Source: a virus (taxonomy: Duplodnaviria; Heunggongvirae; Uroviricota; Caudoviricetes). From it: a stretch of 39,600 nucleotides of DNA. A program made the translations under genes and the position numbers. Each line of letters begins with the position of its first letter. The first letter of the stretch is position 1. The notes under the pieces were generated by a model. The model was not told the DNA's origin. It was given only the letters and a program-made list of their open reading frames with translations, and searched no databases. Of this stretch, positions 1-9,262 are shown one piece after another. The stretch lies in IMG/VR virus record IMGVR_UViG_2563366930_000006, positions 1 through 39,600 of that record; one strand, given 5' to 3'.

Positions 1-2955
1 TTAGTGCTTCCCTTCTATTAAGTCTAACCTAGCTTTTATTCTTTCTATTTCTCTGCGCTGCCATGCCGCCTCGATATAGAATAAGAGATCAGGTCTGACC
101 CCCCATCTAGATCCTGCTGGCGTTATTTCAACGCGCTCAATGATGTCTTCCATTACCATCACTGGATTATCATCCTCATCAACAATGATGCTCCCGTCAT
201 TATCAGTCAGCGGCATTTCCCTTTGGCCAGTAATGACGTCATCATATACTGCGGGATAATCGTCATAGCAAAGAAAGGCATATCGGCATGTTGTGCTTTC
301 TTCTTCCATGAGTCCGTGAGAAATAAGAACATCACGAAGTTGCTGCGCGATTACACCATGATGTATCCTCGCCCCTTCTTCCCCCTTTATAGCGACAGCG
401 TTCAGCCATTTATAAGCGATATACCTGACGTCACCCCAGGCATCCAGCAATGCTTCGTCAGGAGAGACCGGCTCTGTCTTTAATGTTCCGTCACTGGTAA
501 CCACAGGATTGGAGCCAAGATAAACTGTCGAGAACCTGTTTCCCGGACCACCAAGAGCATTTACATTATCAAGATAAGGTTTAACATCTCCGTTCTCAAA
601 AAGATGTTCGAGTGCGTTATATACCGCGCGACGTGGAGTACTGCTTCCGGAACCATGCAACGTTATCATTGCACCATCTGCTGAAGACGTTGTTTCACCG
701 CCGCTAACGATTAATCTCTGAGCGGTAACATCATCAGACGGTACTTTCTTCGCAATAATGGCGTAATTACCCTCAAGTTTGACTTCCGCGCGAACTTGTC
801 CTGATGTACCTGCATGGACAGTCAGTGACTGGACGGCAACATCATCTGTGAAATCAACGGGTACAGGAACCGTCCTCACGCCTGACGTCGACATAAAAGT
901 AGGAAGCGTTCTGTTAGGAGTGGCTCCGTAGACAAAATCCCTTGAAACAAATTCTTCCTGTTTAATTTTCACCCTGAAACAATACAAATCAGCCGGGTGA
1001 CCATCGTGAACATAAGGATATTTTCTGTTGTTATCCCCTATGCTCCATGGGTTTAGAAAGTCTTCCCCACCGAAAATGTAGTACAGCCAGTTGTCTTTGA
1101 TACAAACTGAACCAACACCAACCGCAGAGTTAACTATTCCGCCCTGATAAATCTGATCAGTAACATTAACCCACTCTACATTATCCAGACTCCACTCATT
1201 GACGTTAACTCTGGTCATAAATGTTCTTGGATAATTTCCTGCATAACGGTTATCAGGTTCTCCTCCTTCCCACTCACCAAATGCGCGCTCACTGCCAAAA
1301 ATAATCAGCTCATCGCCAACTTTGGCAAAAGGAAGGTTTGAGTGATGAACATTATTTGGGAAGCGAAGAGAATTCCATGATGTACCTAAATCAGAGCTTC
1401 TGTGCAATGAACTACCGGGTTGAGTACTTAATGTCCCCCTGGTCGTCAGATACAGAATGCCATCATAATATTTTACACATGGCTCAGATGCATTCGCCTC
1501 ATATTCTACAGGTATGCGTCTGCGAACAAAGCTACCAGGAGAACCGAAAGCATCAGAGAAATAGAGTATCCCAAGCTCGCGTGGATCAATATCACCATTA
1601 TGGTAGCCAACAGCAAAACTGTTATCGCTAATCGTCGCAAAACTGTGAATCTCAGTAACAGGAGTGCTTCCGTCAACAAAAGAAGGAATAGTTCCAAGAC
1701 TGGTTTTTCTCCATGGTGACGAGTGAAATGATGTACCAAAACTCCAGTATCTACCCTCGTTATTCTGATCCACATCCTGGGTATTTTGCGTCGTAACTGT
1801 AAAAGTATTTTTATCAATAACAGTAGTCACCGTCATATTCCCGGTAACACCTGTAACACCAGAGTTTGAGAAGTTGACAAAATCACCAGCAAATAATCCG
1901 TGATCAGTAATGCGAATATAAGCGACTTGCTGATTTGCTGCTTTCGTTATACCACCATAAACGCGAAGGCTGCGACTCATTGGGCGATCCCACAACTCTG
2001 CAACCTGCAGTTTATTTCCGCTCACGGTCCGCGTCTCAATTACAGCAAAAAGGCGATTTCTGACAACCCCCATACTCATGCAGTGATAGTTAACTGTGGG
2101 ATAGTTTTCATGTAAATCTGTAAGCCATTCCGGCGTTGTCCAGGTCTTCCCGTCATCTCCTGAGCGAACCCATGCAACATGGAGGTTATTTACACCATGG
2201 CGGTCTCCAGCCATAAAAGGCGCATAGATGACATTGTCATATACAAACGTTTTATCCTGCGTCCAGGCGTTGTACCACGGTGTATCTGTAATTTTAAATA
2301 ACTCTCCCTGGATAAAATCTTCAGAAGCATAAAAAAGAGGCTGACCCGGTATTCTCTCAAATAAAAAACGAGCATTTTTAAATCGACTGACATCTGGAAG
2401 AGTTGATACTTTAAAAGTAAGCCCTCGCCCATCTATCTTTTCACCACCTGTTGCAACAGAAAGTAATTCTGATAGAGCTGATGTATCATCATGAACACCA
2501 TCACCAATAGCCCCCCAACCTCTTACATCATAACTGTCTCTCCATCTTGCTATCTGAAGTTTTGGGTATTTATTCGCTCCATCTGGGTCTTCTAATTGCT
2601 GCCGTAACTGATCAGGATCATACTTCAGCACATTAGGAAAATAGAACTGCTGTGTACCATACGCATCATAAACAGCCATAGAATGGCCTTGCACGGTTAC
2701 GAATTTGGCAATCTGTCCGTTATATACCGGATATCCAGCAGCGTTAATGATGATTGGTTGCGAAACAGGAACGTGAGAACCGTTTTCGTTCTCCACATAA
2801 ACCTGAATCTGGTTTTCAGGATTTACAGGGTCAGTATCAATTTTACCGATATAAATTTTGCCATTGGCATTTGCTTTAAACGAGCGAGCTAAAGTAAATA
2901 ACTGACTTGGTTGTGAAACAACTACGTTGTATAATTGTTCTGGCATAATAAACAT
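1..2955 (-). CDS. Tailspike protein with P22-type N-terminal head-binding domain and C-terminal intramolecular-chaperone (S74-like) domain
   Basis: 984 aa ORF; N-terminus [37 protein letters not shown] resembles the P22 gp9 head-binding domain; C-terminal ~150 aa resembles the autoproteolytic chaperone of endosialidase-type fibers; stop TAA at 1-3. Confidence 0.9.
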
Positions 2956-2968
2956 TCCGGAGAAAATA

Positions 2969-3469
2969 ATGAGTAAGAGACGTCACGAGGTAGTAACTCG
3001 GGAGCGCCTTATGGAGGTTCTCGATTACAATAAAGAAACAGGAGTTTTCACTTGGAAAAAGAAATTAAGCGCCAGAGGTGCTGTTGGGAAAGTTGCTGGC
3101 ACAATTTCTTATGGATATAACGCAATTAATATTGATGGCGTAAGATATTTTGCACATAGACTTGCCTGGCTGTATGTATATGGCGAATGGCCCAAACAAG
3201 AGATTGACCACATTGATAGAAACAGAAGAAATAACGCAATCTCAAACCTTAGGGATGTCAGCAGAGTCGTAAATGCATTAAATGTCGGACCTCGAAATAG
3301 CAATGCTGGAATCAAGGGGGTAACTTTCTGTCAAGCCAGAAATCAATGGCAAGCTCAGATAAATGTCTCAGGTAAAAACATAACCCTTGGGAGATTCAAC
3401 ACCATTGATGAAGCGGCTATAGCTTATAAGGCAGCAAACATGGTTGCTGACCATCTGTTGAGTAGGTAA
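2969..3469 (+). CDS. HNH homing endonuclease with C-terminal AP2-type DNA-binding domain
   Basis: Motif [18 protein letters not shown] (HNH) followed by [40 protein letters not shown] (AP2-like); ATG at 2969 in the ORF frame. Confidence 0.75.
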
Positions 3470-3611
3470 TGTCTGTCATTTAATTTGCTCCAGATACAAG
3501 GAATCGCCGCAGCATGGCTACGGTTGATGTTTGTTGCATACCGAAATGGTACGATTGTTGATTTGTACAGTAGGTTTTACGATGCCATTCCACCCATTTG
3601 GTGAGGCATTG

Positions 3612-3869
3612 ATGATGTACAGCAAATACGATGAGGCGCAGTTCCACTTGAGGCTTACGCACGAGTTGCACGCTAAGATTAAGCAGCGTGCAAAAATGAA
3701 TAACAGGTCTATCAATTCCGAAATTGTGGCTACGATGGAAGAATCACTCTCCAAACCATCACCTGTAAGCGGGTATCGTGATGAAGAAGAGAGGTTGGCC
3801 TCATTAATCTCGGAGCGAGTAAAAGAAGTTGCGGCTGATATCCTTAGAAAAGAAAAAACCCGCGATTAA
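3612..3869 (+). CDS. mnt: Mnt-like ribbon-helix-helix repressor
   Basis: NNRSINSEIVATMEESLSKPSPVSGYRDEEERLA resembles P22 Mnt; GGTGAGG RBS before tandem ATG ATG at 3612. Confidence 0.75.
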   Translation: MMYSKYDEAQFHLRLTHELHAKIKQRAKMNNRSINSEIVATMEESLSKPSPVSGYRDEEERLASLISERVKEVAADILRKEKTRD

Positions 3870-3880
3870 GCGGGTTTAGT
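3853..3880. terminator. Bidirectional intrinsic terminator between convergent genes
   Basis: Stem CCCGC/GCGGG with loop GATTAA, A-run on one side and T-rich tract on the other; the mnt stop codon lies in the loop. Confidence 0.6.
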
Positions 3881-3883
3881 TGG

Positions 3884-4105
3884 TTAGTTATCAAAAAGTC
3901 CGTACGTTTCTTCTTCTTCAGGTGTAAGGGGAAGAATCTCTACTCTATCTATAGATATCTTTTCAATGTACCCATGAGGTCTACTTAAAATTAAAGCTCT
4001 CTCATGCCACAGAACTCCAAGAATGTGATACCTTCCAGCATCGCCTTTTACCCTGGCTCTTCCTTTGATTCTTGGCGGCATAATGCCATATTTTTTCTTT
4101 GCCAT
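3884..4105 (-). CDS. Hypothetical 73 aa protein, translationally coupled to the upstream gene
   Basis: ORF with ATG overlapping the upstream stop by one base (TAATG); followed by the bidirectional terminator. Confidence 0.45.
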   Translation of the reverse strand: MAKKKYGIMPPRIKGRARVKGDAGRYHILGVLWHERALILSRPHGYIEKISIDRVEILPLTPEEEETYGLFDN

Positions 4106-4833
4106 TATGCAACATTACTCCCATGAATCAGGTGTTGTAGTGCTTTAACACCTTCCTCATTGTAGCGGAATGCTTCCACCTGTTTGCTGGAATGCGCAGA
4201 TTTATCCAGGAAGAACTTCCCGTACTGCTCAGTTTTGAGGTTGTTTGCGTTAGCAATGCGACCAATCTTGTTGGCCGTTACTCCAAGCTGCTCTGCAACC
4301 TCCCCTGCTGAGTAGTAATGCTCTTCTATTGCTGGAAGAGGTATTGCATTAAAACCAACGATCGGGTTGATTATGCTTGCTGCCGCAGTCTGCTTTGCTT
4401 CCGGCGCAAGATTTGGCATCAAATCGAACAGATTGGTAACAGCTTCAACCGTCATTTTCAATGTTCGCGCCTGGCGATACTCAACAAGTCCACTAGACGA
4501 TTTACCGCTTTTAATGTGCGCTTCTTGCATACTTTCAAGTTGGTCTACAAGTGAGCGGCGAACAGCTTTAGATTCACGAGCAGCCACTCGAAGGGCTTGC
4601 TTAATTGACATAACAACTTTTTCAGAAGTTGTCTTGTTTGATTTTTGAACTACGAAAATTTCGTAGTGCTCACCTTCAAGTTCATCCTTAATGCGTGCAA
4701 TAAAGTCGTTATTGCGGACTTCTTTTTCCCCGCACTGTCTACGAGCATGATTGACCATCTCTAACAGGTACTGGCTATCAATGGTTTTATCCGTGACAAC
4801 GGATCCGATGTTTGCTACATTCTTAAAAGTCAT
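4105..4833 (-). CDS. Antirepressor-like protein with C-terminal KilAC-type domain
   Basis: C-terminal YSAGEVAEQLGVTANKIGRIANANNLKTEQYGKFF resembles the KilAC domain; ATG at 4833 with AAGGAA RBS; upstream in-frame codons judged non-coding. Confidence 0.6.
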   Translation of the reverse strand: MTFKNVANIGSVVTDKTIDSQYLLEMVNHARRQCGEKEVRNNDFIARIKDELEGEHYEIFVVQKSNKTTSEKVVMSIKQALRVAARESKAVRRSLVDQLESMQEAHIKSGKSSSGLVEYRQARTLKMTVEAVTNLFDLMPNLAPEAKQTAAASIINPIVGFNAIPLPAIEEHYYSAGEVAEQLGVTANKIGRIANANNLKTEQYGKFFLDKSAHSSKQVEAFRYNEEGVKALQHLIHGSNVA

Positions 4834-4902
4834 TAGGCATTCCTTATGTGGTAGTAAGGGTGTGACATAGGCCGCCAGCAGCACACTGGCGGTTTTCTTT
4901 TT
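4829..4902 (+). ncRNA. Candidate sar-like cis-antisense RNA (copy 2) over the start and RBS of the KilAC-domain gene
   Basis: Extended -10-like TGCTACATT at 4813-4821, then a canonical intrinsic terminator (stem GCCGCCAG/CTGGCGG, then TTTTCTTTTT) at 4871-4902 on the strand opposite the gene. Confidence 0.35.
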
Positions 4903-4921
4903 GCGCCGTCCGGCGCACCAA

Positions 4922-5548
4922 TCAATGAATCCATTCCTCGCCGCGCAGTTTTGCCAGCATTGGCTGAGCGTTCTTTACGACAAAATTGTTGGTATCAAGA
5001 TTCTTCATTTCACGAAGAAGTGATTTCTTGGTTTCTTCTGACATGTAGCGAGTCTCATATGCAATATCGTAAATCCTTCCTGAAAGCTCAGAACCAATTT
5101 GCTTCATTCCTGGGTAGATGTGTTTGCACATTTGTTGACTCTTCTCCATCCACAATTGTAAGTAGCAGAGATTAACCAGTTCTTCGTCAGTAAACTGTTT
5201 TGCAATCGGTGAGCATTCTGCCTGCCGATCCAAAATATCCAGCACCCAGCGGCGGAACTCTTTGGCTACCTGAGTGCGAGCAAACATCGCGATTAGGTGG
5301 GCACCGCGTAGTGAGAAAACACGCACTTTTTTGCGATAATTTCCTGAGGTACTCACTTCGAGTACCTGAGTCATTCCGGCGCTAAACTCATCGCTATACT
5401 TGTTATAAATCATTGTTACTGCACGACTATTTGCGTATTTAAGTGCAGATGCAATATTAGATGATGTAAACCAAACACCATGCATATCACGGGTGGGCAC
5501 CAATTCAACTCCGTGGAAGTTGTAATCTGATTTTGCTACAATATTCAT
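4922..5548 (-). CDS. ant: Antirepressor with AntA/Bro-N-type domain
   Basis: N-terminal region FHGVELVPTRDMHGVWFTSSNIASALKY typical of AntA-like antirepressors; ATG at 5548 with AAGGAAA RBS; sits downstream of arc. Confidence 0.7.
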   Translation of the reverse strand: MNIVAKSDYNFHGVELVPTRDMHGVWFTSSNIASALKYANSRAVTMIYNKYSDEFSAGMTQVLEVSTSGNYRKKVRVFSLRGAHLIAMFARTQVAKEFRRWVLDILDRQAECSPIAKQFTDEELVNLCYLQLWMEKSQQMCKHIYPGMKQIGSELSGRIYDIAYETRYMSEETKKSLLREMKNLDTNNFVVKNAQPMLAKLRGEEWIH

Positions 5549-5625
5549 GTTAGTTTCCTTGCATACGGTTACTGACATAGAGGCCCGGTTTGTGTTCACG
5601 CACTGCCGGGCTTCACTATTTTTAC
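5549..5625 (+). ncRNA. sar: Candidate sar-like antisense RNA (copy 1) covering the ant RBS and the arc-ant intercistronic region
   Basis: Extended -10-like TGCTACAAT at 5534-5542 directly antisense to the ant start; stem GCCCGG/CCGGGC at 5582-5610 then T-rich tract; same architecture as P22 sar. Confidence 0.4.
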
Positions 5626-5795
5626 TGGGCATTAGCTCTTTCCTCTCTCAGGCTTTTAGCCAGTCGCTGCACAATCGCAGAGTTGATAGAAATTCCATCC
5701 ATTTCAGCAACACGTCTAATCTCCTCCTTCATTCGCGCTGGCAAACGAAGCTGGAAACTTTGACTTTTACGACCTGTGTAAAGCACATCTTTCAT
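5622..5795 (-). CDS. arc: Arc-like ribbon-helix-helix repressor
   Basis: 57 aa; SQSFQLRLPARMKEEIRRVAEMDGISINSAIVQRL is an RHH fold; GGGAGGA RBS before ATG at 5795. Confidence 0.75.
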   Translation of the reverse strand: MKDVLYTGRKSQSFQLRLPARMKEEIRRVAEMDGISINSAIVQRLAKSLREERANAQ

Positions 5796-5822
5796 AAGTA
5801 ATCCTCCCACAATGATACCAAC

Positions 5823-5838
5823 TTGGTTCTAGAACCAA
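5823..5838. promoter_or_regulatory. Perfect 16-bp palindrome TTGGTTCTAGAACCAA in the divergent arc / mnt-like promoter region; candidate RHH operator
   Basis: Exact inverted repeat read directly in the 111-bp divergent intergenic region. Confidence 0.5.
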
Positions 5839-5906
5839 TTTAACACCATTTATTTTGATGTCAAGTTGGTGCTATTGTTTAGCGAACATCTTTACGTTGA
5901 GGTCAT

Positions 5907-6227
5907 ATGAGCAAGTTCCCTAGTCATGAAATGGATAGGTTCAATATCAGGCTTCCTGCAGGAATGCGGGATGCTATAGCTGAACGAGCCAAACGTAACG
6001 GCAGATCAATGAACTCAGAGATTGTTCAGATACTGGAAGATGCCTTGAATGCAGAAAATACACTCGGGGAAATAGCAGATAAAATCAACAGCGTCTCGGT
6101 TCCGCTAAATGTTGATGCGCTAGTTCAACTTCAAGCCCAGGTTATCGCCATGCAAAAAGAAATACAGGAAAAGTTCAGAGAGCAGAACGAAAAGTTGAGA
6201 GAACTGCTAAACAAAAAAACCACCTGA
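5907..6227 (+). CDS. Second Mnt/Arc-family RHH regulator with C-terminal coiled coil
   Basis: RFNIRLPAGMRDAIAERAKRNGRSMNSEIVQILEDAL is an RHH motif; divergent from arc as mnt is in P22. Confidence 0.7.
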   Translation: MSKFPSHEMDRFNIRLPAGMRDAIAERAKRNGRSMNSEIVQILEDALNAENTLGEIADKINSVSVPLNVDALVQLQAQVIAMQKEIQEKFREQNEKLRELLNKKTT

Positions 6228-6245
6228 CGGTGGGTTAATTTTTGC
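6216..6245 (+). terminator. Possible terminator after the second mnt-like gene
   Basis: Stem CCACC/GGTGG with the stop codon in the loop, T-rich tract 5 nt downstream; non-canonical spacing. Confidence 0.35.
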
Positions 6246-6260
6246 CTTTTTTGGACCATA

Positions 6261-6289
6261 TTGACTACTCATAAAATGAGATCAATATT
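6261..6289 (+). promoter_or_regulatory. Candidate promoter for the YjzC-like gene with a palindrome CTCATAAAATGAG in the spacer
   Basis: TTGACT at 6261-6266, inverted repeat CTCAT-AAA-ATGAG at 6268-6280, A/T-rich -10-like hexamer near 6283-6289. Confidence 0.3.
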
Positions 6290-6325
6290 TAATCGCCCAA
6301 TAACGGGTGCATGTTGAGGTATATC

Positions 6326-6505
6326 ATGGCGAAAAAACCAGGTGAAAACACAGGAAAAAACGGCGGAATATACCAAGAAGTTGGCCCGCGCGGAGGTAAG
6401 AAAGACAATTTTGCCACCGTCAAGGACAACGAAAGGCTTCCGCCAACAACAAAGCCAGGTCATGGCTGGGTATTAGATAAGCGAACTCCAGACAGCAAAA
6501 AGTAA
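6326..6505 (+). CDS. YjzC-like small protein (59 aa)
   Basis: KPGENTGKNGGIYQEVGPRGG...RLPPTTKPGHGW fits the YjzC-family pattern; GAGGT RBS before ATG at 6326. Confidence 0.55.
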   Translation: MAKKPGENTGKNGGIYQEVGPRGGKKDNFATVKDNERLPPTTKPGHGWVLDKRTPDSKK

Positions 6506-6511
6506 TAATCA

Positions 6512-6533
6512 AGCCGGGTCACTCCGGCTTTTT
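6512..6533. terminator. Intrinsic terminator after the YjzC-like gene, overlapping the stop of the convergent HExxH gene
   Basis: Stem AGCCGG/CCGGCT with loop GTCACT then TTTT. Confidence 0.5.
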
Positions 6534-6884
6534 GATATGTCGCTCGCAGAACTCAACAAGCCTGCTCATTAAGTAGCAGTAAGTCTCGTTGGCTCTTCCT
6601 GGTTCAACATCAACGCCGACCCTTGAGCAGATATCGAATGCCATGTGAGCGCACTCATGGGCAATAGTAGATAGTTTGCCATTGAACACACCTATCACAT
6701 GCAAAACACCATTCTCGCTGCTCATTGTATGAGACGCTCCGTTGGCATCCGAGTCCTGCACGTCCACGCCAAGTTTTTGATGCAGGCGTTGCCATTCTGG
6801 AAAGTCTCTGCAAAACACAATTGTACCGCTCTCAAAGAGCGGAACGAGCATTTTTGGTACGTTTCCAATGTTAACTTTTTTCAT
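6519..6884 (-). CDS. HExxH-motif protein, possible ImmA/IrrE-like (M78) metallopeptidase domain
   Basis: 121 aa; segment NGVLHVIGVFNGKLSTIAHECAHMAFD carries an HExxH motif in a context resembling ImmA-like peptidases; the family assignment is tentative. Confidence 0.45.
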   Translation of the reverse strand: MKKVNIGNVPKMLVPLFESGTIVFCRDFPEWQRLHQKLGVDVQDSDANGASHTMSSENGVLHVIGVFNGKLSTIAHECAHMAFDICSRVGVDVEPGRANETYCYLMSRLVEFCERHIKKPE

Positions 6885-6914
6885 GGTATCCTGCTCAAAA
6901 CTAAGGAGGTTGGT

Positions 6915-7142
6915 GTGAAGCGATGGTTCCTCATAATTACTGTTTTCGCGATCATTTACACTATTTTCCCTGCGTTAAAAGCACCAATGCAAATAATTTC
7001 GCTAGCAATAATTGCAATTGGTGCTTTCATTGCAGTAGCCGTACTTGTGTTTAAGGTTTTAAAGTTTTTAGTTTGGCTATCAAAAGATGATGGATGCAAA
7101 GTTCATCAAGAAAAAGAAGGCAAAATAACCAAAGTTGACTAA
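6915..7142 (+). CDS. Small predicted membrane protein (about 75 aa, two hydrophobic helices), GTG start
   Basis: Strong RBS TAAGGAGGT before in-frame GTG at 6915; hydrophobic stretches WFLIITVFAIIYTIF and IISLAIIAIGAFIAVAVLVF; no competing ORF on the other strand in this gap. Confidence 0.4.
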   Translation: MKRWFLIITVFAIIYTIFPALKAPMQIISLAIIAIGAFIAVAVLVFKVLKFLVWLSKDDGCKVHQEKEGKITKVD

Positions 7143-9262
7143 CTGTCACTAGCGAGCCATGTAATAATCCCCGTGCGGGCAATGGTTTTTGCTTCATCTG
7201 TTGATAAGGTTTTCTCCCATCTCTTAAATGCCCCAGATTGCATCAGTTTCCTTTCTATTACGCGTCTCACTTCTGCTCTGTCTACTGGTGCGTTTTGCAG
7301 GCGAAATAGCATTGATTTAAACTCAGGAGAAGACAGTAGAGCATCAGCAGCCTTTATCCTGCTTGTTTTCCCTGACATCAATGCTGACGTTATCACCCCT
7401 GTTGCACCTACACCAGGAAGACCAGATAAGCTTGTAATACCTTCCGCCGCAGCAGCTTTTGAGGCTATTCCATAAATTTTTGCGAGACTACCCTTTTCTT
7501 TCAGAAAGTTATTAACTTGCTGATCCACAAGGCTGCTAGCATACTGCTTACCAGTATTGAGTCTATTCATAGCCTTGGCTGCTTGATAAATCGTATCAAG
7601 GCGCTTTGATGCATCTGTGCCAATAGCATCACGGAGAGCCTTCATATTGGCCCCATTGCGTGACATTCCGTTATACCATTTTACAAATCCATCAACCCCT
7701 AATTGCTGACCTGGTGATTTAGCATAGCTGGTAAATGCTTTATTCATTGAGGTGAGCGCAACTTCCTGCCGCATATCCTTTGGAATTGACTTCATTAATT
7801 GCCTAAAGTCACCACCGTTTCCTTTTGCCATATTAACAACGGCACTTTCAACTTTTGGAATTGCTGATTGCTGAAGTTTTCTACCCAAAACGGTTACGGC
7901 ATCATCTTCAATGGATTTTCGTGTTTTTACCAACTCCTTACCAAGCGTCCATAACTCCCCTGCGCCATATTTTTCTGCGACAGCCTGTTGGTCATCTGTT
8001 ATAGCCGCATATAACTTTTTAAGAACACCTGTTTCTTCATCCTTGAATGGGCCAGAGCCTTTGCCAATAGCTTGCCCAACCTGCTTTCTAGCGAGATCTA
8101 AACGCCCATACGTTGGCAAGGTGTTTGGATCAAGTCGGTTCAATGTCCGCTTCATTATTGGAGATAATTCATCAATTCCACCTATATCATCAGCAAAATC
8201 CTCTAAAAAATTCAATGTATTAGTTGCCTCAATCCGGTCTCTTACAGGAACCTTTTCGGCAATTTTGTTGTAGATGTTATCTGACTGATTTTGTAATGAT
8301 GAAATGGTTTTATCAAAATTATCTGCAAGCCTGTCAGAAACCAGTTGCTTATCAAGGCTTCCCCCAAATGAAGTTATCATTTCATCAGCTTTTCTTCCTA
8401 ATTCAGTAATAAAACGCTTATGCGCCTCACTAATCTCTGTTCCAGGGAGACTTGCCACTGCATTATCAAGAGCCCTGACAGCAGGATTATTAGAGATCAT
8501 GCCTGGAGTGGCATAATTTTCCAGTTCTAGCTCACGAATAGCATTTATCGCGTTAAAATCAGGATTAACTTCATCGGCGAAATCTTGAATAGCTCGTTGC
8601 CCGCCGATAAATTTATTGTCCATTGCGCCAGCAGCTTTCTTTAACGTTGCTTTAGATGATTTACTACCCATCCCTACGGATGAGCGATAAATATCTCCGG
8701 CACTATTTTTAATTTTTCCTGCAATCTTCCCAAGCGCTGGACCAACAATCTCTGCTACAGGGCCAGCCACAGCGCCAATAGCAGCTCCAGAAGCAACATC
8801 GCTATTTGTTCCATTGGCTACAATAGCCCCTTCTCCAGCACCAAGCCCTGCGGCGGCAGCCAGCCTTGCCGCCCCTTTCGGAACCTGAGAAATAATCCCA
8901 CCACCACTAACAAATGGCGCTGCTTGTCCAACAAACTCACCAACATCTTGTGCGGTTGATGGTTTTGCCGCTAACTTCTGCTGTAGAGACTGAATTGCGG
9001 CTTGCTCTTCTGGTGTCATATCCTGAAACAGGCCAACACCTTTACCAACATCCATCAATCCACTGAGAACGCCATACATAAAACGGTCGAAACCGTTAGC
9101 ATTATTAACAACATTTTCCTGTCTGGAATTTTCCTCTGGTGAAACCAAAGGAGATTGCTGCTGTTCTGGTTGGGAATCAAGCACAAAGCCATCAGGAAGT
9201 TGTGAGTTATCAGGCTGTTCATCCAGAACAAACCCCTCTGGTAAACCTACATTGGTTGCCAT
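7139..9262 (-). CDS. Ejection / DNA-transfer protein, gene 16 position
   Basis: 707 aa ORF last in the 7-20-16 ejection-protein series; Gly/Ala-rich central region; assigned by position. Confidence 0.65.
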   Translation of the reverse strand: MATNVGLPEGFVLDEQPDNSQLPDGFVLDSQPEQQQSPLVSPEENSRQENVVNNANGFDRFMYGVLSGLMDVGKGVGLFQDMTPEEQAAIQSLQQKLAAKPSTAQDVGEFVGQAAPFVSGGGIISQVPKGAARLAAAAGLGAGEGAIVANGTNSDVASGAAIGAVAGPVAEIVGPALGKIAGKIKNSAGDIYRSSVGMGSKSSKATLKKAAGAMDNKFIGGQRAIQDFADEVNPDFNAINAIRELELENYATPGMISNNPAVRALDNAVASLPGTEISEAHKRFITELGRKADEMITSFGGSLDKQLVSDRLADNFDKTISSLQNQSDNIYNKIAEKVPVRDRIEATNTLNFLEDFADDIGGIDELSPIMKRTLNRLDPNTLPTYGRLDLARKQVGQAIGKGSGPFKDEETGVLKKLYAAITDDQQAVAEKYGAGELWTLGKELVKTRKSIEDDAVTVLGRKLQQSAIPKVESAVVNMAKGNGGDFRQLMKSIPKDMRQEVALTSMNKAFTSYAKSPGQQLGVDGFVKWYNGMSRNGANMKALRDAIGTDASKRLDTIYQAAKAMNRLNTGKQYASSLVDQQVNNFLKEKGSLAKIYGIASKAAAAEGITSLSGLPGVGATGVITSALMSGKTSRIKAADALLSSPEFKSMLFRLQNAPVDRAEVRRVIERKLMQSGAFKRWEKTLSTDEAKTIARTGIITWLASDS

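Follow-up and report, generated by a model that had tools for sequence, protein, structure and literature searches.

The stretch of DNA between genes 16 and 9 of P22-type phages was named the "ant moron" by Villafane et al. (PMC2629481); it is a variable region, with ten different gene sets among sixteen genomes. Antirepressor modules decide whether a superinfecting relative wakes the resident prophage, and are widely found in E. coli, Salmonella and Stx phages. An ant moron with two mnt genes is already known, namely that of CUS-3, in which they are annotated together with ant. Morons with a lone mnt have also been discussed (PMC2629481 and PMC8022706), and the mnt of phage L was considered either to be a remnant or to have taken on a new function (PMC8022706). 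Here we analyzed one 39,600-nucleotide stretch of viral DNA, hereafter the window (IMG/VR record IMGVR_UViG_2563366930_000006, Caudoviricetes). The window is a P22-like (Lederbergvirus) prophage of the CUS-3/Kapi1-like kind; its best genome-wide matches are phiv205-1, CUS-3, E212 and Kapi1, and Sf101 and HK620 were matched as well. Like immI of P22, the region 3470–6505 is placed between the gene 16 homologue (DNA transfer protein; 7139–9262, minus strand, from the list of open reading frames (ORFs)) and the endosialidase-type tailspike gene (1–2955, minus strand, from the ORF list and genome matches). It is the ant moron, or immI, of this prophage and sits at the known hypervariable spot. Most of the region is ordinary, the interval between genes 16 and 9 being a known hotspot of gene turnover and the ant moron a mosaic module.

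An earlier note on this DNA described 3470–6245 as one expanded immI region, with two Mnt-like regulators, Arc, two antirepressor-type genes and a perfect palindromic operator. All six ORFs on which that description was built (mnt2, orf73, orf242, ant, the arc-like gene and mnt1) are present at the places given. Pfam also supported its statement that three ribbon-helix-helix (RHH) genes of the Arc/Mnt family lie in an immI-type region, with an arc-ant operon divergent from a Mnt-like gene: Mnt1, Mnt2 and the Arc-like protein each match the Arc family (PF03869) above cut-off. As in P22, one RHH protein is divergent from the ant operon (Mnt1, 73.1 bits) and another leads it (Arc, 45.2 bits). The idea of a single expanded circuit is not supported, for Mnt2 appears to belong to a separate unit adjacent to the tailspike gene, and this unit is also present in Sf101 without any ant genes and, in a sister form with a lone mnt, in ST64T and phage L. 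We think it fairly likely that the region consists of two immI units side by side, one complete mobile cassette (3856–6505) and the remnant of an older immI (3466–3869).

In the cassette, mnt1 (5907–6227, plus strand) encodes a 106-residue RHH protein with the recognition strand RFNIR (PF03869 at 1.6e-20). Its RHH domain shares 54% identity with residues 8–44 of P22 Mnt; the alignment of the two proteins is limited to residues 12–48, with no match beyond. The C-terminal segment of Mnt1 is long and unrelated to that of P22 Mnt, and the tetramerisation domain at the C-terminus of P22 Mnt was not found in it. In the PDB, Mnt1 matches AmrZ, pArc, Mnt and Arc. Mnt1 occupies exactly the mnt slot of P22, because the neighbouring 59-residue ORF (6326–6505, plus strand) is 98% identical to P22 orf59a. 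The arc-like gene (5622–5795, minus strand; PF03869 at 8.3e-12) encodes a protein of 57 residues, with the recognition strand SFQLR and 38% identity to P22 Arc.

The ant operon is preceded by a predicted Pant-like promoter, TTGACA-16-TAAATT with an upstream TG (5837–5864, minus strand), which scored 10 of 12 in the promoter scan. The hexamers TTGACA and TAAATT are located at 5864–5859 and 5842–5837, respectively, and the predicted start, at ∼5830, falls on the centre of the perfect palindrome TTGGTTCTAGAACCAA (5823–5838). The palindrome is real, covers the predicted ant promoter start, and is the sole perfect one of at least 14 bp in the window. Its perfection by itself is not significant; 0.64 perfect palindromes of 16 bp are expected per window by chance, and 46% of dinucleotide shuffles hold one. 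Its significance comes from its position and its conservation, with 6–8 of the 8 symmetric positions kept in 29 unique class-1 relatives. For comparison, we used 80 viral loci with a homologous Arc; these gave 54 unique intergenic regions between arc and its divergent partner, including those of P22 and a Stx phage, which were aligned by anchoring on the −35. Of 52 related intergenic regions in the alignment, 51 keep this −35 (as TGTCAA); P22 has it too, the Stx phage alone being different (TGGCAA).

The same alignment indicated that the palindrome is probably not a stand-alone operator but the middle pair of a six-box array (5814–5873), in which each box is 8 bp long with a consensus of about AGNACCAA. 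Boxes A (5814–21), C (5831–38), D (5842–49) and F (5857–64) are in forward orientation, and boxes B (5823–30) and E (5866–73) are in reverse; D is located in the promoter spacer and F is the −35 of Pant. A and B form one 17-bp dyad, O_L (5814–5830, centre 5822), F and E form a second dyad, O_R (centre 5865), and B plus C make up the perfect palindrome. O_L, which overlaps the 16-bp palindrome, has the 8-1-8 geometry of the annotated P22 Omnt and is equally far from the −10. The putative extended −10 of the mnt1 promoter (TGCTATTGT; 5870–5878, plus strand) overlaps box E. Both main operator classes have its TGnTAnnnT pattern, with varying bases in between.

Across the 54 intergenic regions, the boxes change together with the divergent partner. 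Partners with the recognition strand RFN[IV]R are accompanied by a mean of 2.0–3.7 ACCAA sites, depending on the group. With RFT[VI]R partners, which have the same Arc strand, the mean falls to ∼0.1 (13 of 14 loci have none), and TGAYRYCA boxes stand at the same places. VFNLRM partners go with P22-like CCCCAC-C-GTGGGG, close to P22 Omnt, and PFGLRM partners with CACGGTG-type boxes. Locus L052 has a different Arc strand, and its boxes are unchanged. As judged from these alignments, box sequence tracks the recognition strand of the divergent partner and not that of Arc. Our best reading is that Mnt1 would bind the six-box array and occlude Pant.

The recognition strand SFQLR of Arc was found with four unrelated operator classes, with no motif common to all of them. 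Two motifs considered for an Arc operator, ACCA at −25 and CCATT at −13, are common to classes 1 and 2 and absent from locus L074; L052 has another Arc strand and an unchanged promoter region, and the assignment was dropped. The Arc strand types assort freely with unrelated promoter and operator classes (L074, L052), which would not be expected of a protein that has to bind the promoter, as Arc of P22 does. Loose operator patterns, searched over the whole window, showed no enrichment over shuffles.

Two further observations concern mnt1 and arc in relatives. In Stx1/Stx2 phages, the mnt1 homologue shares 95.7% nucleotide identity from codon 16 onwards (5953–6234 of the window; 2455–2775 of locus L008); its last two-thirds are kept, and the N-terminal recognition strand differs (KFNLRF). 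The breakpoint inside this gene evidently marks a recombination that swapped the DNA specificity and kept the C-terminal part. Locus L009 (4953–5099) and loci L030–L038 possess a 96% identical Arc, together with Ant, orf242 and Mnt2, yet have another operator class; similarity to them ends exactly at the arc start codon, and their partner gene is either shortened (83 residues in L030) or, in L009, a pseudogene by annotation.

The second unit holds mnt2 (3612–3869, plus strand), which encodes 85 residues with the recognition strand QFHLR and a P22-Mnt-like C-terminal domain (PF03869 at 4e-15). It had been described as the more P22-Mnt-like of the two regulators, and it shares 46.6% identity with P22 Mnt over 73 residues (7–79), C-terminal domain included; that feature of P22 Mnt is found in Mnt2 rather than in Mnt1. 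The stretch 3470–3611, previously treated as an mnt upstream region, is indeed upstream of mnt2, but it is also the conserved intergenic region between mnt2 and the divergent tailspike gene. Window positions 3466–3611 align with the tailspike/mnt intergenic region of 55989, JEP4, Sf101 and VSe13, and in 80 of 80 related viral loci mnt2 and the tailspike gene point away from each other, with about 132 bp between mnt2 and the tailspike start. In JEP4, Mnt2 is present with a C2-type repressor that replaces Mnt1.

Within this intergenic region, the 17-bp dyad O2a (CATACCGAAATGGTACG, TACC-N5-GGTA; 3537–3553) abuts, as in P22, the −35 of a putative weak mnt2 promoter, TTGTTG-17-TACGAT (3555–3583, plus strand), which was read against the annotated P22 Pmnt and ST64T. 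O2a is conserved in 67 unique upstream regions of the Mnt2 (QFHLR) type, being a perfect GTACC-TAAAC-GGTAC in the most divergent; in loci of the QFNLR type (ST64T), it is replaced at the same position, beside the same ATTGT motif, by the Omnt-like AAGACCACGGTGGTCTT (GACCAC-N-GTGGTC). Because the dyad is conserved and is swapped where the recognition strand changes, there is good comparative evidence for O2a as the candidate operator of Mnt2. Another inverted repeat, CACC-CATTT-GGTG (3591–3603, plus strand), is located just before the Shine–Dalgarno sequence (SD) of mnt2. It was considered as a second Mnt2 operator, O2b, and rejected, since both its arms and its spacing differ among relatives in a compensated way (CCAGT..ACTGG, CACTT..AAGTG) and the recognition strand of Mnt2 does not change; it is probably a hairpin of the 5′ untranslated region rather than an operator.

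On the tailspike side of the same region, the inverted repeat CCGCAGC-ATG-GCTACGG (3507–3524) has a stem that is kept in divergent relatives with other sequences (CAGC-AGA-GCTG, CACATC-GGA-GATGCG), which points to a hairpin in the RNA of the tailspike leader or to a terminator on the plus strand. A sigma-70 promoter leading from 3480–3611 into the tailspike gene, as a decayed Pant, was looked for and was found neither at the scan threshold nor by eye.

The predicted intrinsic terminator of the arc-ant-orf242-orf73 operon (3856–3877, minus strand) consists of an 8-pair stem followed by TTTTTTCTTTT, with the mnt2 stop codon in its loop. It had been called bidirectional; the minus strand passes the scan, but the T-run on the plus strand is weak and does not. 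A second hairpin terminator, at the end of mnt1 (6220–6233), was accepted by the scan in either direction. Both mnt-like genes have their stop codons (3867–3869 and 6225–6227) inside the loops of terminator hairpins whose stronger direction is that of the late operon (minus strand), and late transcription, where unmodified, would therefore also be stopped at the ends of these genes.

The ant gene (4922–5548, minus strand; phrog_245) encodes 208 residues and contains Bro-N (PF02498, 39.4 bits with a cut-off of 25.6) and P22_AR_C (PF10548, 53.4 bits with a cut-off of 22.4), both nearly full length. The Pfam scan of this protein returned these two domains and no AntA, so the label "AntA-type" given to it before does not apply. 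Its C-terminal domain shares 29% identity with that of P22 Ant (E=1e-9), and Ant is probably an antirepressor.

The second gene of the operon, orf242 (4105–4833, minus strand; phrog_1726), had been labelled "KilAC-type" (PF03374). No Pfam family matched it at E≤0.01, and up to E=10 the Pfam listing contained HTH_31 alone (E=0.13); the label was dropped and none was put in its place. NCBIfam, PADLOC and PDB sequences gave nothing for orf242. It has 2099 homologues in enterobacterial prophages; among the 120 best, none has a precomputed Pfam domain and nearly all are named "hypothetical". In the AlphaFold2 model (predicted local distance difference test score 72.6), orf242 is composed of an N-terminal α/β domain, long helices and a C-terminal winged-helix-like domain. 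Foldseek against the PDB gave weak MerR/RacA/Xis-like matches to the C-terminal 60–70 residues, all with E>0.09. "Anti-repressor" and "KilA" are annotation names for this gene, its sole link to antirepression being the PHROG label and the operon position. The 73-residue orf73 (3884–4105, minus strand; phrog_4977, unknown function) had no Pfam, NCBIfam or PADLOC match and no informative one among PDB sequences; it is translationally coupled to orf242 as proposed, through a stop/start overlap in the form TAATG. That ant and orf242 might be one protein split by a sequencing error is contradicted by three observations: complete genomes with 99.9% identity have them as two annotated genes, about 50 of the 80 related viral loci carry both, each as its own gene, and the 88-bp gap between them holds a conserved antisense promoter and terminator.

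That promoter and terminator belong to one of two predicted antisense RNA units of the operon, both of which were missed by the earlier note. The first is sar-like. The spacer between arc and ant and the first ant codons align with the Psar/sar region of P22; an extended −10 (TGCTACAAT; 5534–5542, plus strand) is located inside the 5′ end of ant, and the predicted RNA (∼5549–5622, plus strand; unit 5534–5622) contains two hairpins and a T-run. The sequence 5549–5622 gives the same two-hairpin fold as P22 sar (z=−6.3), and in 41 unique sequences the terminator stem covaries, with pairing kept by compensatory changes. The hallmarks of P22 sar, namely a promoter in the 5′ end of ant, a length of about 70 nucleotides, two hairpins and a terminator in the arc-ant spacer, are all recognised here at the sequence level. 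An Rfam search of 3300–6700 found no family at threshold; the best hit was a sub-threshold symR at 5546–5617, which coincides with the sar-like RNA.

The second candidate unit, "sar2" (4793–4905, plus strand), came from the promoter and terminator scans and is antisense to the start and ribosome-binding site (RBS) of orf242. Its predicted promoter is GTGACA-17-TACATT with an upstream TG (4793–4821), and its RNA (∼4828–4905) would end at a hairpin (4869–4895) followed by a T-run. In 20 unique sequences, the promoter hexamers are invariant and the 17-nucleotide coding spacer varies freely; the terminator stem shows compensatory changes in 14 unique sequences. The first hairpin of sar2, taken alone, is not significant (z=−1.8).

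From the gene and domain content, homology, synteny, conservation and covariation observed, we infer the protein–DNA assignments, promoter activities, RNAs and antirepressor activity of the two units as follows. In a lysogen, Mnt1 made from its weak extended −10 promoter would bind the ACCAA-type boxes over the −35, the −10 and the start of Pant; this would keep arc, ant, orf242 and orf73 off, and the main prophage repressor would stay active. Upon infection, with no Mnt1 present, Pant would fire, and Arc would build up and lower the expression of the operon. With no Arc operator assigned, autoregulation by Arc is assumed here by analogy with P22. Two short antisense RNAs would limit translation, sar opposite the RBS of ant and the second opposite that of orf242, and the operon would end at the terminator within the 3′ end of mnt2. 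Ant is the likely antirepressor, and orf242 and orf73 would be co-regulated passengers. The Mnt2 unit, divergent from the tailspike gene, would have its own 17-bp dyad beside its own weak promoter and would have lost its arc and ant partners. Most likely Mnt2 regulates itself; it may also act in trans on incoming phages or on tailspike read-through.

Several points weigh against this reading. The mnt of Kapi1, which has a different cassette, is not detectably expressed in lysogens (PMC12922286). The promoters of mnt1 and mnt2 are both below the threshold of the promoter scan (9/12). For Arc, no operator could be assigned, with no dyad in the spacer between −35 and −10, where P22-type immI has a 21-bp Arc operator, and no motif that tracks the Arc strand in the 54 intergenic regions. 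The boxes adjoin the N-terminus of the partner, and simple linkage could give part of the "covariation". As the dyads of Mnt1 type and Mnt2 type resemble each other, the two circuits may not be cleanly separated, and cross-talk is possible. Finally, the B/C palindrome has a mean symmetry of 7.07 of 8 in the 29 unique class-1 relatives, above those of A/B (4.6) and F/E (2.9), and the true binding unit could be the B/C palindrome.

This last point is shared by one alternative, according to which the palindrome is the single key operator at the transcription start, bound by one RHH tetramer of Arc or Mnt1, and the other boxes are incidental. The palindrome is the only long perfect one in the window, it is centred on the predicted start, and it is the most symmetric element in the relatives; all of this agrees with the alternative. 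However, in many loci of the sister class, which shares this Arc, the spacing of the equivalent back-to-back pair of boxes is 1 bp shorter, whereas that of the head-to-head pairs is constant. Changes in box B go with those in box A (GTACC/GTACC, GCACC/GCACC) and not with those in box C; P22 Omnt maps onto A/B and not onto B/C; and extra copies of the box are conserved at the −35 (F/E) and in the spacer (D). We regard a single palindromic operator as possible but doubtful.

Another alternative is one integrated, double-locked circuit, in which Mnt2 binds the A/B dyad (TACCAACTTGGTT) and Mnt1 the other boxes of the same ant promoter, so that a single antirepressor operon would be under two maintenance repressors. 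Resemblances in both directions speak for it: TACC-N5-GGTA matches O_L with one mismatch, where ∼0.016 such matches would be expected in the 111-bp region, the Mnt1-type dyad matches 3592–3602 with two mismatches, and the O_L dyad of locus L040 (GGTACCTAGTTGGTACT) is an almost perfect Mnt2-type dyad. The same O_L sequence is present, however, in cassettes without Mnt2 nearby (Oslo, L040), and the recognition strands differ, being Q-H-R in Mnt2 and R-N-R in Mnt1. Mnt2 is moreover found with operator classes 1 and 2, with the unrelated C2-type control region of JEP4 and with no ant at all, which argues that it is not tied to the ant promoter. A double lock of this kind appears rather improbable to us.

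About equally improbable, in our judgement, is a reading in which the RHH proteins of these cassettes follow a simple code. Whether one residue of the recognition strand is Asn, Thr or His would decide the identity of a single base pair in an xCC(A)-N-(T)GGx box, and discrete "anti-immunity groups" would be defined in this way. The orphan Mnt2, with its dyad overlapping class-1 operators, would then be a trans-acting shield that silences incoming antirepressor operons of other groups or double-locks its own.

Compared to the two-unit arrangement, which we favour, a decaying relic is far less likely. Five independent complete genomes, one of them E. coli 55989, have the block at 99.9% identity, annotated in RefSeq; in other genomes it is 95–97% identical with reading frames kept. 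That the region is a non-functional recombination patchwork, with repressors and ant genes out of use, would fit its high rate of gene gain and loss and the degraded ant and arc genes of some phages (PMC2629481), the truncated partner genes of the L009 and L030 relatives and the silent mnt of Kapi1, but with all six ORFs intact, with these identities and with promoter hexamers, operator boxes and RNA stems conserved through compensatory changes, it is very improbable. Among 5426 complete E. coli genomes, 1231 contain parts of the block and 17 have it in full (at least 80% covered).

The left border of immI is set by a predicted HNH/AP2 endonuclease gene (2969–3469, plus strand; phrog_99), which lies outside immI and was also missed by the earlier note. 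It matches Pfam HNH_3 at 2.5e-16, and AP2 below threshold (27.2 bits with a cut-off of 33.3). The cassette that carries it is ∼520 bp in length (∼2943–3465) and is inserted in the 5′ end of the tailspike gene, after codon 4–5 of its canonical form. Phage Kapi1 has an identical cassette, E. coli 55989 has none, and the flanks are the same; such presence and absence at one precise site of collinear genomes is the pattern of an HNH homing-endonuclease cassette, which this one appears to be. In alignments, a relic of the canonical tailspike start (ATGACAGACATTAC, MTDI; start 3466–3479) with the SD GGAG was located at 3466–3491 (minus strand), and the tailspike coding sequence annotated in 55989 begins at the site of this relic. 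In the window, the tailspike now begins with M(FIM)PEQLYN, 14–23 bp from the divergent HNH start.

At the other border, the orf59a homologue has a promoter-like site (6261–6289, plus strand) and is followed by a terminator (6511–6530), both from the scans. Where P22 has sieA, the window has a 121-residue ORF (6519–6884, minus strand; phrog_1365) and another ORF (6699–7142, plus strand). In E. coli 55989 an annotated ORF (6950–7177 of locus L002, plus strand) has the counterpart position in this space. Searches of Pfam (E≤10), NCBIfam, PADLOC and PDB sequences with the 121-residue ORF gave nothing informative.

The value of the analysis is a testable regulatory map, pairing repressors with DNA boxes, for a widespread and unstudied immI cassette of non-P22 type. 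To what was described before, the map adds the two predicted antisense RNAs and the evidence that places the second Mnt with the tailspike-adjacent unit, not with the ant operon. In the natural swap series, Asn of the recognition strand gives way to Thr and ACCA of the box to ATCA, which makes the series suitable for a study of RHH specificity.

Like immI of P22, the locus has an RHH repressor divergent from arc-ant at the same genome position, a strong predicted TTGACA promoter, a 17-bp dyad equally far downstream of the −10, and terminators that bracket the unit. It also shares a predicted antisense RNA of the sar type, whose promoter lies within the 5′ end of ant, and orf59a after mnt. Different from P22, the repressor in the mnt slot has an unrelated and longer C-terminal part, and six boxes take the place of one Omnt and one Oarc, with no recognisable Oarc. 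Ant here has Bro-N and not the P22-type N-terminal domain; orf242 and orf73 are extra, with a second antisense unit, a second, P22-Mnt-like gene stands beside the tailspike gene, and sieA is absent.

The Mnt2 unit is closest to the lone-mnt morons. As in ST64T, ST104, phage L and Sf101, the mnt homologue is directly divergent from the tailspike gene with homologous flanks, and a 17-bp dyad is located in the middle of the intergenic region (∼135 bp). In contrast to those morons, the unit is joined here with a complete second cassette, and QFHLR with TACC-N5-GGTA stands in place of QFNLR with GACCAC-N-GTGGTC. CUS-3 is the closest overall genome match and has a K1 endosialidase tailspike; its two mnt genes, however, are in tandem on one side of ant, there is no arc (PMC2629481), and the gene content of its moron is different.

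The cassette itself has its nearest counterparts in siphoviruses. Salmonella phage Oslo has an 88% identical Arc, the same Mnt1 N-terminus and a nearly identical operator array, and the Stx1/Stx2 phages have the same C-terminal two-thirds of Mnt1. In these phages the divergent RHH gene encodes 106–125 residues and ant ∼325–335 residues; orf242, orf73 and Mnt2 are all absent, the cassette is set among tail genes and not between genes 16 and 9, and that of the Stx phages has a swapped recognition strand and different boxes. Because the arc/ant cassette with its divergent partner is also present in the tail-gene regions of Oslo and Stx phages, it is evidently mobile. The region as a whole is a variant of a known module, and not a new kind of system.

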